Below, piece after piece: positions 54,022-59,534 of a stretch of DNA of 64,000 nucleotides; within the stretch, counting starts at the first letter, position 1; every line of letters starts with the position of its first letter. The stretch lies in NCBI GenBank assembly GCA_963737065.1, contig CAVTRC010000001.1, forward strand, positions 1,568,001 through 1,632,000, read 5' to 3'. The notes beneath the pieces are model-generated. The model was not told the origin of the DNA. It saw nothing but the letters and a program-made list of their open reading frames with translations, and ran no database searches. Made by a program: the position numbers and the translations under genes. The DNA is from Candidatus Eremiobacteria bacterium (GTDB lineage: Bacteria > Vulcanimicrobiota > Vulcanimicrobiia > Vulcanimicrobiales > Vulcanimicrobiaceae).

Positions 54022-56856
54022 TTGGCATCCGAGATTTTGATCTCGAGCGACCCGTGGGAGAACCGGGTTGCCGTACTTGAGGACGGCATACTCGCCGAAC
54101 TCTACATCGAGCGCGAAGAGAAAGTTATCGGCTCGATCTACAAAGGGAAAGTACAAAACGTGTTGCCCGGCATGGGCGCCGCGTTCGTCGACATCGGTTT
54201 AGGACGTAACGCGTTTCTGTACGTCGACGACATCAACAAGCAACCGCTGAATATCGGCGACGTTGAAATCACGCACGGGCACTCCGGCTTCACGATCAAT
54301 GAAAAAGTGAAAAAGGGTGACGACGTACTCGTGCAGATCGTCAAAGAGCCGCGCGGTCTCAAAGGCGCGCGGATTTCGACGAATATTTCACTGCCGGGTC
54401 GTTATTTGATCTTAATGCCGACCGGCAAATATTCCGGTGTGTCGCGCAAAATCGACTCGGCGGAAGAACGCAACCGGCTCAAGGCCGTCATGAAGCGCAT
54501 TCGCCCGGAAGGAATGGCGACCGTCGTACGCACCGCGGCGGCCGGCGTCAGCGAGGCGGAGCTGATTGCCGATCTCGGCGTGCTCATCCGCATGTGGCAC
54601 GGAATCCTCGAAACGTTCAAACGCGCGGCCTCACCATCCCTCTTGCATCGCGACATGAACCTCGTGTACAAAGCTGCACGCGACTTCATCACCGCCGACG
54701 TCGATAAAGTGTTGATCGACGACGAAGAAGAGTACCGCAAAGTTCGCGAGTTCCTTCAACTGCTCGGACCGCAGTATCTCGATCGCGTTCAGCACTACAA
54801 TCACGGGCGTAGTCTCTTCGACGATTACAAGATCACCGAAGAACTGCAGCGCCTGATGAAGCCGAAGATCAATCTGCCGTCCGGCGGATCGATCGTGATC
54901 GAATCGACCGAAGCGCTCACGGTTATCGACGTAAACTCCGGGAAGTTTACCGGGGGCCGCAATCTCGAAGACACGATCGTGAAAACGAACCTCGAGGCGG
55001 CATACGAGATCGCGCGCCAAGTGCGTTTGCGGGACATCGGCGGCATCATCGTTGTCGACTTTATCGACATGTCGACCGAGGCGTCGCGCAACAGAGTGAT
55101 CAAGGCACTCGAAGACGGGTTGCGCCGCGATCGTACGCGAGCGACGATTCAGTCGTTCTCGAATCTCGGACTTCTCGAGTTTACGCGCAAACGGGTCGGC
55201 AAGGATCTCGGATCGCAATTGCGCGGCACGTGCCCCACGTGCAGCGGCATGGGCAGCGTGATGTCGCCGCAGTCCGTCGCGATCGAAACGCTGCGCCAAG
55301 TGCGCAACGCCGGCGATCACAAGCACGATCACAAGCGGGTCGTTGCCAATGTCGCGCCCTCGGTTGCCGCGCAGATGGAGTTTTGGTACGAGGATGAAGT
55401 GCAAGAGCTGTCGCGCGAAATCGATTCCGCGATCCACGTGCGCGTCGATCCGATGCTGCATCCCGAGAAAGCGAGGATCGAACGCGTCGCAAACGTCGTG
55501 AACGGAGCGATCCGCGTCGGCGACGAGCACGAGGTCGAACTCATTGCCGGTCGTCTTCCGAATGCCGGGTCAGCAGCAGCCGTCGTAAACGGCCACATCG
55601 TCGAAGTTGAAAACGCGGCGAACAACGCGGGGAACACCGCGAAGATTCGCATTCTCGATATCGACGACGACAGCGACTACGTGCTCGCCGAACTCATGAG
55701 CGCCGGAGCGCGCGCCGAGAAGAAGAAACGGCGCCGCGGCGGCAAGGGCAAACGCGGGATGACGGCCGCTGAAGAGGCGCAACAACTGCGCGAGCTCGCG
55801 GAAGAAGCGGCGTCGCAACAACAATCGCGACCGCCGATCGGCATTACGACGGCGAGCGAAGAGGAAGAGGCGCAAGACCGCACGCTTGTCGCTGAAGAGA
55901 AAGGCGAAGCCCAACCGGACGCCATCATCATCGGAGACGAAGAACTCGCTGCGCGCGATGGCGACGGGCAGCGCGGGGGCAAGCGCAAGCGCCGTCGGCG
56001 CCGCCGCGGCGGACGCGGTCGCGGGGGCGAACGTTTTGATGCCGCCATGCAAGTCGGCATTACACCCCAAAGCGCCGCAGCGCAAGCCGAGTCCGAAGGA
56101 GACGAAGAGGACGCAGAGAGCGAGCCGGTCCATCCCGAGCGACCGCATGAAGGCCCGGTACAGGGCGATGAACGGGAAGGCCGCGGGCGCCGTCGCCGCC
56201 GGCGCCGTCGTCGTGGACGCAGTGGTGAAGCGGCGCCGAGCTCCGGCCAACATGACGGCCAGTCGCCACGCGATTTCGAACCGTTGACCGGATCGCTGCC
56301 GATGAATCCATCGGTTCCGGATCGTCACGTGTTTCGCGTCGATGCCGACGGTAAGGCGCACGGCACCGGAATGACGGCACCGAAGGAACCGTCGCGCGCG
56401 ATCGAGCCCGTACGCGACGCGCGTCCTCCCGCCGTTGAACCGCCGCCTCCGCATTTGAAAGCGCCGCACGAAGAGCCGCGTCCAACGAAACCTGCGCGCC
56501 GCCGTCGCAGCGCGGCGCCCGCAAGCGGCGTCGCGGGGAAACTGGAAACCTCACGTATCGCTGCGTTGCCGCCGCCCGCGCAAGCGGTCGAGAAACCGAA
56601 ACGTACGACGCGCAAGAAGCCAACGGAAACCGCTGCCGCTGCAACGGAAGAAAAACCAAAACGCACGCCCAAGAAAACAGCACCGGCGGATCCGGTTCGT
56701 CGTGAGGCGCCACCGAAGACGCCGTCTCCGCCCACGAGACGCGCGCCCGCGAAGAAAGCGCAAACAACCGGAGCTTCGGAGAGCGGCGTGAAGAAGAAAG
56801 CCTCGGCGCGTAAGAAGTCATCCGCCGCATCGACGCGCAAAAAGAAGACGTCGTAG
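54022..56856 (+). CDS. rne: Ribonuclease E/G with TRAM-like segment and long disordered C-terminal tail
   Basis: S1 domain IYKGKV..VLPGM.AAFVDIG, IDVNSG, DFIDM, Zn-link CPTC; GAGG RBS with TTG start. Confidence 0.93.
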   Translation: MASEILISSDPWENRVAVLEDGILAELYIEREEKVIGSIYKGKVQNVLPGMGAAFVDIGLGRNAFLYVDDINKQPLNIGDVEITHGHSGFTINEKVKKGDDVLVQIVKEPRGLKGARISTNISLPGRYLILMPTGKYSGVSRKIDSAEERNRLKAVMKRIRPEGMATVVRTAAAGVSEAELIADLGVLIRMWHGILETFKRAASPSLLHRDMNLVYKAARDFITADVDKVLIDDEEEYRKVREFLQLLGPQYLDRVQHYNHGRSLFDDYKITEELQRLMKPKINLPSGGSIVIESTEALTVIDVNSGKFTGGRNLEDTIVKTNLEAAYEIARQVRLRDIGGIIVVDFIDMSTEASRNRVIKALEDGLRRDRTRATIQSFSNLGLLEFTRKRVGKDLGSQLRGTCPTCSGMGSVMSPQSVAIETLRQVRNAGDHKHDHKRVVANVAPSVAAQMEFWYEDEVQELSREIDSAIHVRVDPMLHPEKARIERVANVVNGAIRVGDEHEVELIAGRLPNAGSAAAVVNGHIVEVENAANNAGNTAKIRILDIDDDSDYVLAELMSAGARAEKKKRRRGGKGKRGMTAAEEAQQLRELAEEAASQQQSRPPIGITTASEEEEAQDRTLVAEEKGEAQPDAIIIGDEELAARDGDGQRGGKRKRRRRRRGGRGRGGERFDAAMQVGITPQSAAAQAESEGDEEDAESEPVHPERPHEGPVQGDEREGRGRRRRRRRRRGRSGEAAPSSGQHDGQSPRDFEPLTGSLPMNPSVPDRHVFRVDADGKAHGTGMTAPKEPSRAIEPVRDARPPAVEPPPPHLKAPHEEPRPTKPARRRRSAAPASGVAGKLETSRIAALPPPAQAVEKPKRTTRKKPTETAAAATEEKPKRTPKKTAPADPVRREAPPKTPSPPTRRAPAKKAQTTGASESGVKKKASARKKSSAASTRKKKTS

Positions 56857-57476
56857 TCTTCGTCGACTACGACGGGACGATCACCGATCTCGATACCTTC
56901 GACGTGCTCGTGCGCACCTACGCGGGCGACGGGCTGTGGGAGGAACTCGAAGAGAAGCTCATCGCGCGCGCGATGACGCTTCGTGAAGTGCTTTGCGCGC
57001 AGGCCGCGCACATCGACGTCCCGCTCGATGAAGCCGATGCGCTGCTCGCGTCACGCACGCGGTTCGATCCGTCGTTTGCATCGTTCGTACGATTTTGCGA
57101 ACGGCGCGGTTACGAACTCATCGTGCTCTCCTCGGGCGTGCAACCGTTGATCGACCGCGCCTTCGAACGCAACGGGCTTGCGCGAGTTCGCGTGCTGGCA
57201 AACGACATCGCCGTCTCCGAACGCGGGTGGCGCTTTCGTTTTCGTGACGACTCGGATAACGGCCACGATAAAGCAGCCGCCGTACGTGCGGCAAACGGCG
57301 CCGGCAAGTCCACGATCTACGTGGGCGACGGTCCGTCCGATTTCGAAGCGGCCATTACCGCGCACGAACGGTATGCGAAGGCCGGACGAGGCCTCGAACG
57401 CTACCTAACCGAGCAAGCTATACCTTTCACGCCCTTCACACAATTCGCGGAAATCGAAGCAGCAATCAGCCGATGA
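56853..57476 (+). CDS. HAD-IB phosphatase (MtnX-like), no canonical start codon before motif I
   Basis: VVFVDYDGTIT (motif I), LSSG, DK, YVGDGPSD. Motif I lies upstream of the first GTG at 56904. Confidence 0.82.
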   Translation, partial: VVFVDYDGTITDLDTFDVLVRTYAGDGLWEELEEKLIARAMTLREVLCAQAAHIDVPLDEADALLASRTRFDPSFASFVRFCERRGYELIVLSSGVQPLIDRAFERNGLARVRVLANDIAVSERGWRFRFRDDSDNGHDKAAAVRAANGAGKSTIYVGDGPSDFEAAITAHERYAKAGRGLERYLTEQAIPFTPFTQFAEIEAAISR

Positions 57477-57500: not shown

Positions 57501-59534
57501 ATGCGGATTTCGAGCGGGTTTATGATCGCGGCGGTCGCACTCTGTTCGTGCGGGGGCGGCGCTTCGTCGTCGCGGGTAGTTCCGAACGCTCCGGCGGGGA
57601 CGCTCACGCTCCCGGCGTCGAGCGGTATGTGGAGCGCTTCTCTCGGCCCGCGCAGCTCCACGAGCAGCGGCAAGCTCAACGCCATCGCATTCGATCCGCG
57701 CGATTCGTCGACCATCTATGTCGCGGGAGGAATCGGAACCGATGACGGGGTGACGACCGACACGGGCGTCTACAAGACGACCAACGGCGGCGCGTCCTGG
57801 AGCTCCGCGAATTCCGGTCTGCAGGACACGACGGTCAACTGGCTGATCTTCGATGCCACCGGGAGCGCATTGTATGCGGCGACGGAAAGCGGCGGCATCT
57901 TCCGCTCCACCGACGGCGCGCAGAGCTGGCAACAAGTGAGCGGGGCGCCGTCCGTGCGGCAAATCGTCGAAAGCAACGGCACGTTATATGCGGCGTCTGC
58001 GTCCGGTGTGCTCTCATCATCGAACGGATCGACGTGGAACGTGTTCGCGCAAACGGAAGCGGCAGCAAACGCGATCGACGTTTCGGGAAACGACATCTAC
58101 GTTGGCCTCGTCGATGGGTCCGTGCTGCACGTGACCGCTACGTCGCAACAGCGGTTGACCGATTTTCCGGCGCTGGATGCTCCGCCCGAAGTGCACGCGA
58201 TCGCCGTCGATCCCTCGAGCCCGAACTCGATCTACGCGACGATGGACGGCATGGTTACCGGCGTGTATACCGATGCGCTGATGCATTCGAACGACGGCGG
58301 CCGATCGTGGCAAGCAATCGCGATTCCACCGTCACTGCGCGGCGCGCAGGCGATCGCATTCAGCAGGACGGTTGCGCATCGGTTATTCGTCGCCGGAACC
58401 GGGCTTGCATATAGCGATGACGGCCGCACGCTGATCGCCGGCGGCGGATACGATGACGATGCGCGCACGCTGACCGTGCTCGGCGGCGACCGCTTAGCGA
58501 TCGCGTCCGATCAAGGCGTCGCACTGGGGACCTTCAACGGCTCGTTTACGCCGATCACCGCCGGATTGCCGGTCAACATCGTGCGCAGCGTGGCGGCGCA
58601 TGGCAGCACGGTGCTCGTTACGATGCAAGATTTTGCGCCCGCCCGTTCCACCGACGGCGGCGCAACCTGGGCGACGCTATCGGTGAACTCCACGGAGAAC
58701 GGAGACGCGTACATCAACCCCAGTCAGCCGAACCTGTGCTATATCCTCGACAACGGCATCAACGTGTCGAGCGACGGCTGCGCGTCGTTCATGCCGGAAT
58801 CGATCGGCGCGCACATCGCGAGCACGCAGCCGTTTGCGACCGATCCGAAATCCGCGCTCACGTACGTAATTACGGCGAACGGGGCGTATGTAGCGGCCGA
58901 CGGCGCGCATTTTCAGCCGGTGCATTGGAACGCACCGCAGCCGGTCGACGTGGCGATCGATCCGCGCAACGGCAGCAATATCTTCGTCTCGTCGGTGAAC
59001 GGCGGCGTGGCGGTGTGGCATTCGAGCAACGGCGGAAAGAGTTGGACGCGCAGCAATACGTTCGTCCCGCCCGGCCCCTCGTATCCCAATGACGCGCCGG
59101 TCATTGCGGTCGATCCATCGAACGGAACGGTCGTCGCCGTGACGGAAACCGCAGTTTATCGATCGACCGACGGCGGTGCGACGTTCGCCGCCGTGCAGCA
59201 AACGGAAGGGCAACTGCGCGGGCGCGGCTCGATGCATCAAGCGCGACGAATCGATCCCGATTCACGCGAGCGCGAAGCCGAAACGGCCGGATACAACATC
59301 GGCGAACACGCGCAGTTCGTCTCAACGGGATCGGGTGCGATGCTCGTGATCGACAACGAGACGGGAATGTACGGCTCAACCGACGACGGCACGACGCTCC
59401 ACACGCTGCGAGGAAATGCGATTTCCCACACCTTCGAGGGCTTCACCGCCGATGCCAACGGCAATCTCTGCAGCGGCACCGACGGCGAAGGCGTCATCTG
59501 CGCACCGCTGTCGAGCCTAGTCTCGCAGATCTAG
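57501..59534 (+). CDS. Lipoprotein with BNR/Asp-box beta-propeller repeats (sialidase/VPS10-like)
   Basis: Lipobox-like ALCSC; repeated S/TxD/NGGxS/TW motifs. Confidence 0.8.
   Translation: MRISSGFMIAAVALCSCGGGASSSRVVPNAPAGTLTLPASSGMWSASLGPRSSTSSGKLNAIAFDPRDSSTIYVAGGIGTDDGVTTDTGVYKTTNGGASWSSANSGLQDTTVNWLIFDATGSALYAATESGGIFRSTDGAQSWQQVSGAPSVRQIVESNGTLYAASASGVLSSSNGSTWNVFAQTEAAANAIDVSGNDIYVGLVDGSVLHVTATSQQRLTDFPALDAPPEVHAIAVDPSSPNSIYATMDGMVTGVYTDALMHSNDGGRSWQAIAIPPSLRGAQAIAFSRTVAHRLFVAGTGLAYSDDGRTLIAGGGYDDDARTLTVLGGDRLAIASDQGVALGTFNGSFTPITAGLPVNIVRSVAAHGSTVLVTMQDFAPARSTDGGATWATLSVNSTENGDAYINPSQPNLCYILDNGINVSSDGCASFMPESIGAHIASTQPFATDPKSALTYVITANGAYVAADGAHFQPVHWNAPQPVDVAIDPRNGSNIFVSSVNGGVAVWHSSNGGKSWTRSNTFVPPGPSYPNDAPVIAVDPSNGTVVAVTETAVYRSTDGGATFAAVQQTEGQLRGRGSMHQARRIDPDSREREAETAGYNIGEHAQFVSTGSGAMLVIDNETGMYGSTDDGTTLHTLRGNAISHTFEGFTADANGNLCSGTDGEGVICAPLSSLVSQI

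Follow-up and report, generated by a model that had tools for sequence, protein, structure and literature searches.

A phosphatase gene without a canonical start codon overlaps the end of rne in Vulcanimicrobiaceae and may be translated by termination-coupled reinitiation

How can an enzyme be made from a gene that offers the ribosome no canonical start codon ahead of its catalytic residues? This question is raised by a locus of a Candidatus Eremiobacteria bacterium from the family Vulcanimicrobiaceae, located in a stretch of 64,000 nucleotides (GenBank assembly GCA_963737065.1, contig CAVTRC010000001.1, positions 1,568,001 to 1,632,000; G000:C1:1568001-1632000 in our naming, in which G numbers stand for genomes and L numbers for junction loci). 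This whole stretch is referred to as the window. Here, we analysed the junction between rne, the gene of RNase E, and the HAD phosphatase gene behind it. A preliminary description of the locus had proposed that a programmed -1 frameshift joins both products. Our comparison with related genomes points towards a different route, in which ribosomes that terminate on rne would restart on a non-canonical codon.

The rne gene (54022..56856; all features of the locus lie on the forward strand) is an open reading frame of 944 amino acids, whose product matches the catalytic profile of RNase E/G (RNase_E_G, PF10150, 339.8 bits) and also carries S1 and thioredoxin-like domains. Its disordered, Arg/Lys-rich tail ends in ...STRKKKTS*, encoded by CGC AAA AAG AAG ACG TCG TAG with the stop codon at 56854-56856. 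The HAD frame is -1 relative to rne and open from a TAA (56811..56813; present in 4/5 species of the genus, with CAA in G003) down to a TGA at 57474-57476. Behind the TAA it reads GAA GTC ATC CGC CGC ATC GAC GCG CAA AAA GAA GAC GTC GTA GTC TTC GTC GAC TAC GAC GGG ACG, which translates into E V I R R I D A Q K E D V V V F V D Y D G T. Read codon by codon, this part of the frame holds no ATG, GTG or TTG between the TAA and the catalytic DYDGT (56865..56879), that is, HAD motif I with its nucleophile Asp. Every canonical start lies downstream of this motif; the first one, a GTG at 56904..56906, would yield a form of 190 amino acids devoid of the catalytic Asp pair. In these frames and coordinates, our analysis agrees with the preliminary description. 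The two genes overlap in the usual 4-nt geometry, as the HAD-frame codon GTA (56853-55) sits over the rne stop TAG (56854-56) within GTAG (56853..56856). A codon overlapping the upstream stop by 4 nt in -1 phase is thus in place, but it is GTA in 5/5 species rather than ATG, GTG or TTG. The coding region of the phosphatase was drawn from this codon (56853..57476), its first codon being putative. No Shine-Dalgarno (SD) sequence was found at the junction, since pairing with the genome's own 16S tail stays weaker than -3 kcal/mol for every 12-nt window whose first base lies at 56800-56861.

According to its profile matches, the HAD product belongs to the HAD-IB group (PF12710, 69 bits at a cut-off of 27; TIGR01488, 72.3 bits at a cut-off of 45). 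Motifs I-IV of HAD-IB enzymes are defined as DxDxT, S/T, K and GDxxxD, and the corresponding DYDGT, SSG, DK and GDGPSD of the phosphatase are invariant across five species of the genus. The protein is MtnX-like, but it stays below the MtnX equivalog thresholds (TIGR03333, 47 bits vs 303.2; NF007103, 57.9 vs 292; TIGR01489, 75.5 vs 81.55). Among solved structures, MtnX and phosphoserine phosphatases come closest, at only E ~2e-4 (1.8e-4 for MtnX, PDB 2fea), and the source names of more distant homologues place the protein family in Eremiobacterota. Two related species (L035 and L038; G210, G207) carry DYDAT instead of DYDGT as motif I.

Is the frame without a start a gene at all? The junction is present in four of the genus's other six species (G001, G002, G003 and G005), and all four are without a canonical start. 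A metagenome contig with a junction identical to that of G005 is likewise start-less. G004 retains only the 3' end of the HAD gene at a contig edge, and in G006 the gene has been cleanly deleted (L129, G006:C42:31300-34500; rne stop at locus nt 766); there, rne ends in ...AAG AAA AAG ACG AGC TAG and the BNR/sortilin-like gene follows about 55 nt later. Wherever the junction is present (five genomes), the end of rne reads TCG TAG (TCG TAA in G002) and is overlapped by the HAD-frame GTA, and none of these species has a GTG or ATG just before FVDYDG. Since five independent assemblies of the genus agree, the missing start is not a base-calling error. At the position of GTG 56904, the other four species read GTT. 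Over about 206 codons without any stop or indel, the ratio of non-synonymous to synonymous substitution rates (dN/dS) ranges from 0.086 to 0.158 at dS values of 0.68-1.04 (ten pairs from five species), and pairwise differences in the 16 codons ahead of the first canonical start are synonymous in 20 cases and non-synonymous in 4. Judged by these substitution patterns, the HAD phosphatase is evidently a functional gene under strong purifying selection despite its missing canonical start. A functional gene of this kind requires an unusual translation event, and to this extent the argument of the preliminary description, together with the conserved -1 frame and stop overlap, stands.

The origin of this state can be read from sister genera, where the HAD gene still starts with a GTG inside a GTGA overlap (L022, ...AAG TGA TC GAA GTC TTC GTC GAT; L019, ...TCG TGA TC...), of which the GTAG at 56853..56856 is a degenerate form. 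G002 (L004) reads TCG TAA TC TTC GTC GAT and is one G-to-A step away from GTGA, while the other four species read TCG TAG TC. As judged from these aligned junctions, the start loss in the genus derives from an NTGA overlap by a G-to-A change in the base shared by both genes (GTGA to GTAA/GTAG). For rne, which exchanges one stop codon for another, the change is silent, yet it destroys the start of the HAD gene.

To place the genus in its family, we surveyed rne-HAD junctions more widely. The HAD gene was found in 112 of 348 genomes of the family (E <= 1e-20). Eighty further loci were added, with unpublished genomes and weak paralogues left out; 92 loci were examined, five were dropped as they had no clean motif I, and one of the remaining 87 had too short an upstream frame, so that 86 junctions were classified. 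One canonical-start outgroup, L012 (G014), was omitted from the tree and the Fisher test described below and supports no claim. Wherever enough upstream sequence exists, rne lies directly upstream of the HAD gene. Of the 86 junctions, 59 have the HAD frame at -1 relative to rne, 18 have it in frame 0 and 9 at +1. The most frequent arrangement is HAD at -1 with a 4-nt NTGA stop/start overlap, in which the start is part of GTGA or TTGA in 13 cases. A canonical start is absent from 26 junctions, namely ten with CTGA only, 15 with NTAA/NTAG or otherwise none (all at -1) and one in frame 0 (L090). Junctions without a canonical start are thus distributed 25 to 1 between the -1 frame and elsewhere, compared to 33 to 26 for those with one (Fisher p = 1e-4, the species being non-independent). 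In this survey, the loss of the canonical start goes along with the -1 overlap layout and occurs almost only there. The CTGA-only junctions stem from ten species (L036, L054, L059, L060, L064, L069, L078, L086, L087 and L091). Four of these carry inserts (gaps of 38, 41, 44 and 59 nt vs 17) and keep the CTG in frame in every case; translation in those species would therefore begin at or before the overlap. From its sequences, the CTGA-only group looks like a set of natural CUG starts used via coupling.

Start loss is also found beyond the genus of the window. In a second genus, g82, seven genomes and four further metagenome contigs read TTAG, TTAA, GTAA, GTAG or CTAA at the overlap, one member having TTGA, and the HAD gene shows a median dN/dS of 0.148 at a median dS of 1.09. 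Single start-less genomes or contigs are L075 (GTAG), L125 (GTAA) and L027 (CTAA); several of the single cases are incomplete genome bins. In a maximum-likelihood tree built by a quick IQ-TREE search from 95 HAD proteins, the start-less state needs 7 changes, of which at least three are forced by well-supported branches. By this phylogeny, start loss recurred independently in g82 and in several single genomes.

But how is the phosphatase then translated? We suggest termination-coupled reinitiation on a non-canonical codon, either GUA 56853 or AUC 56829, and assign this explanation a probability of roughly one half; restart after RNase E is in our view the more likely route compared to frameshifting. 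Both the restart and the codon that it would use are what we infer here. In the proposed scenario, the HAD gene of an ancestor with ...TCG TGA TC... would have started on the GTG within GTGA. With G changed to A in the shared base, rne would have retained a stop (TGA to TAA, later TAG), and the GTG of HAD would have become GTA. After termination, the ribosome would remain on the mRNA and restart without an SD sequence on a non-canonical codon, which might be GUA 56853 or, if the ribosome first diffuses back over a short distance, AUC 56829. A hairpin at the junction may hide the region from free ribosomes and be opened by the ribosome translating rne. HAD output would thus be tied to rne translation at a low ratio. 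In the simplest reading, ribosomes terminating on rne have been the source of the phosphatase all along, and their restart would tolerate a weak codon, as in the CUG group, or a degenerate one.

The lack of pairing with the anti-SD sequence at the junction fits reinitiation rather than de novo initiation. According to PMC12548453, no motif is more common in coupling than NTGA, and starts 38-50 nt upstream are within reach of scanning ribosomes; PMC6728339 states that RNA structure around the initiation region may keep coupled genes from being initiated de novo. In E. coli, initiation from AUC and CUG amounts to 1-2% of that from AUG on a high-copy plasmid and to 0.02-3% on a bacterial artificial chromosome (BAC), and the other 57 codons as a class reach 0.1-1% on the plasmid (0.01-0.2% on the BAC for the five tested), as given in a portion of bioRxiv 10.1101/063800. 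The in-frame ATC (56829..56831) is the nearest candidate for a near-cognate start with a single mismatch, lies 25 nt before the rne stop and is conserved in 5/5 species; its A occupies the third position of an rne Ala/Thr codon and, unlike neighbouring third positions, does not vary among the five species. Other in-frame ATCs occur 7 nt before the stop in g82 and 4 nt before it in L125. Restart directly on the stop-overlapping GUA (UUA/CUA in g82) would constitute a natural, long-lived and start-codon-independent reinitiation at a -4 overlap; we put this specific version forward as a tentative idea, and rather doubt it.

Several points weigh against reinitiation on these codons. GUA and UUA mismatch the initiator anticodon at two positions, and no natural bacterial gene with either of them as its start is known to us. 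The AUC is placed 25 nt upstream and has no SD sequence. AUH or CUG codons are not enriched among the 20 open codons before the Asp (14/16 start-less vs 37/59 canonical junctions, 5/7 by lineage), and their presence is no evidence because they are no commoner in start-less than in ordinary junctions. Both start-less clades that are old enough to have radiated also carry AAA-AAG, so that a frameshift could equally explain their persistence. Moreover, part of PMC2268962 reports that reinitiation in E. coli requires initiator tRNA.

The frameshift originally proposed would occur at C_AAA_AAG (56838..56844) with the aid of the hairpin and yield an RNase E-HAD fusion of about 1150 amino acids; we consider it unlikely. 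Equally unlikely is its predicted product, in which the peptide ...STRKK/EDVVVFVDYDGT (= ...STRKK-EDVVVFVDYDGTITDLDTFDVLVR) would span the junction and whose mass would be roughly 125 kDa. The HAD frame is indeed at -1 and open from the slip site, and start loss is confined to -1 junctions (25 vs 1 elsewhere). AAA-AAG is present in 5/5 species of the genus, where it shifts between Lys positions 1-2 and 2-3 and is never lost, as well as in 7/7 g82 genomes and in 3/4 further g82 contigs (the fourth reads AAA AAA AAA). Yet the same pair occurs in 20/34 canonical-start -1 junctions, in 6/17 in frame 0 and in 3/9 at +1, as part of a conserved RKKK tail. It is even retained in G006, which has lost the HAD gene, and is found in none of five single start-less junctions (L027, L056, L075, L090 and L125) nor in the ten CTGA-only junctions. 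With 1 synonymous change in 33 codons, the three Lys positions of g82 are indistinguishable from two nearby Lys codons (3 in 22). Two caveats already attached to the frameshift proposal hold: the heptamer starts with C, or with G in two species, instead of A, so that the A-site Lys can re-pair while P-site re-pairing has a first-base mismatch, and no SD-like stimulator exists upstream, as the scan of 56800-56861 against the 16S tail demonstrated. The genome encodes tRNA-Lys(CUU) beside tRNA-Lys(UUU) (ARAGORN), which argues against shift-prone decoding of AAG; tRNA-Lys(CUU) is said, from work by Tsuchihashi and Brown in 1992, to lower AAG slippage, and E. coli is without it. A protein search for fused RNase E-HAD proteins of 365-2000 amino acids at E <= 1e-10 gave none, which is weak evidence.

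As to the hairpin, CGTCGTAGTC-ttcgtc-GACTACGACG (56849..56874) forms, as described before, a perfect 10-bp stem (arms 56849-58 and 56865-74) with a 6-nt loop and holds the rne stop, the GTA codon and the DYD codons. An 8-10 bp core of the stem is conserved in five species, including one compensatory G-C to A-U pair in G002 (TAG/GAC to TAA/GAT). This single covariation is weak because GAT is common at the compensating position in junctions outside the genus. In its 71-nt context, the fold is unexceptional for the composition (z = -0.64; 48/200 shuffles fold equally well or better). Stable junction hairpins are common among relatives with ordinary starts (family median about -11 kcal/mol, canonical junctions down to -23.2), compared to -17.2 for L001 and -21.1 kcal/mol for L002 in this genus. 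The spacer between heptamer and structure usually measures 5-9 nt in dnaX-type frameshifting, but the distance from AAG to the stem is 4, 4, 4, 3 and 0 nt in the five species and thus not conserved, and the sole conserved stem in g82 starts 20 nt after AAG. AAA-AAG, stem and absence of a start, which the preliminary description proposed to compare among relatives, are all kept in five species, but AAA-AAG is general in the family, the stem spacing is variable, and the comparison does not support a dnaX-type cassette.

Another route of recoding or expression, e.g. a restart without initiator tRNA on a codon next to or overlapping the stop, or a change at the RNA level, appears less probable still. 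Restart of 70S ribosomes at non-canonical codons is known mainly when ribosome recycling is impaired, which speaks against such a route, and the run of five A is too short for transcriptional slippage. In its favour, the first base of the overlap codon varies freely in g82 (GTA, TTA, CTA), and according to a statement in PMC11194080, citing Inokuchi 2000, 70S ribosomes that are not released at a stop can start at non-canonical codons behind it. A bypass as in gene 60 was considered because the stop sits in a hairpin after a Lys-rich peptide (compare a section of PMC11194080), but the take-off codon UCG has matching landing sites downstream only in the rne frame (56860-62 and 56863-65) and none in the HAD frame. 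P-site slippage at UCG-UAG was rejected, as tRNA-Ser(CGA) cannot re-pair on GUC. It is very improbable, finally, that the HAD frame is a decaying pseudogene or untranslated, or that the junction is an assembly error. The clean deletion in G006 implies that the gene is dispensable in that species, and the incomplete bins among the single start-less cases would fit an error. However, all catalytic motifs are kept, the five independent assemblies agree at the junction, and the low dN/dS (0.09-0.16 at dS up to 1.0) over an intact frame in five species, with a similar picture in g82, leaves this explanation close to refuted by the substitution data of both genera.

How does the junction compare with known systems? 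The -1 frameshift of E. coli dnaX combines A_AAA_AAG with an upstream SD sequence and a 3' hairpin. The junction shares with it the AAA-AAG Lys pair, a nearby 3' hairpin and a downstream frame at -1, but differs in the first base (C/G), the spacer of 0-4 nt, the missing SD sequence, the presence of tRNA-Lys(CUU) and an outcome that would be a long fusion rather than a truncation. In Bacillus subtilis cdd, a -1 frameshift at CGA_AAG near the gene end is driven by the SD sequence of the downstream gene and adds a short tail. Similar to cdd are the potential slip on a Lys AAG near the stop at a gene junction and the non-ideal heptamer; unlike cdd, no SD sequence is present here and a whole enzyme would be added. 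The infC gene starts with the near-cognate AUU. Genes with minor near-cognate starts (AUC and CUG; part of bioRxiv 10.1101/063800) resemble the present case in that an in-frame AUC is conserved here and CUG is the only candidate in ten related species, but this AUC lies within the upstream gene, 25 nt from its stop and without an SD sequence, and its use would depend on coupling. Termination-reinitiation is the mode of translationally coupled NTGA pairs with a -4 nt overlap (Huber et al. 2019, PMC6728339, and the review PMC12548453), with which the junction shares the geometry, the -1 phase and a structured initiation region; the homologous site of relatives has a true GTGA or TTGA. In contrast to such pairs, the overlap here is GTAG (GTAA in one species) and offers no ATG, GTG, TTG or CTG, yet the downstream gene is selected.

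A selected enzyme gene without a usable canonical start has thus been kept for long in at least two clades (dS ~1). If reinitiation is true, it would show a natural tolerance of termination-reinitiation for the identity of the start codon, and if the restart occurs on GUA, NTGA overlaps could lose the start codon yet keep the gene, and gene callers would systematically shorten such genes. A frameshift fusion, if true, would be a covalent RNase E-phosphatase and a new kind of degradosome partner. The tight linkage of rne and the HAD gene across the family points to an unexplored tie of RNA decay with a phosphatase; an open-access literature search joining Eremiobacterota and RNase E found nothing.

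The missing start also bears on public annotation. The public protein of the window's own genome (P0002) has 190 amino acids, is 99% identical, covers 91% of the query and corresponds to a start at GTG 56904; at least this form is without the catalytic DxDGT and its nucleophile Asp. Public relatives with 70-82% identity mostly comprise 167-190 amino acids, their matches covering 80-91% of the query, and N-terminally short proteins are P0002-P0007, P0010, P0011, P0019, P0021, P0025, P0026, P0030, P0031, P0033, P0037 and P0040. With no start to be called, these gene models seem to have been shortened by a systematic error of annotation. Most of the public relatives would be without the catalytic Asp pair.

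Some junctions of the survey deviate in their own ways. In L090 (G328), HAD is in the rne frame after TGA-C without a canonical start (AGC TGA CCC ATC ...), for which stop read-through, AUC initiation and an assembly indel are all possible. L056 (G274) has 101 nt between rne and HAD with a repeat-like insert (...GTCATCCTGAGCGTAGCGAGCGAAGCGAGCG...), which leaves HAD a 20-codon open leader without a canonical or near-cognate start. In the metagenome contig L111, nine A in a row (AAA AAA AAA) make up the three Lys codons directly ahead of a start-less CTAA junction; a run of this length would permit slippage, either transcriptional or ribosomal, or it may be a homopolymer error. The HAD frame of L036 (G355:C1) is open for 1219 codons upstream, across all of rne in the -1 frame, and is probably a shadow frame of high GC content. 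Outside the window, ARAGORN called a tRNA-like gene of 92 nt in which the anticodon has four bases (actg; G000:C1:443525-443616); its poor acceptor and D arms suggest a false call. Within the window, the gene after HAD (57501-59534, forward strand) encodes a protein of 677 amino acids with BNR/sortilin-Vps10-like repeats (PF15902, 61.6 bits).

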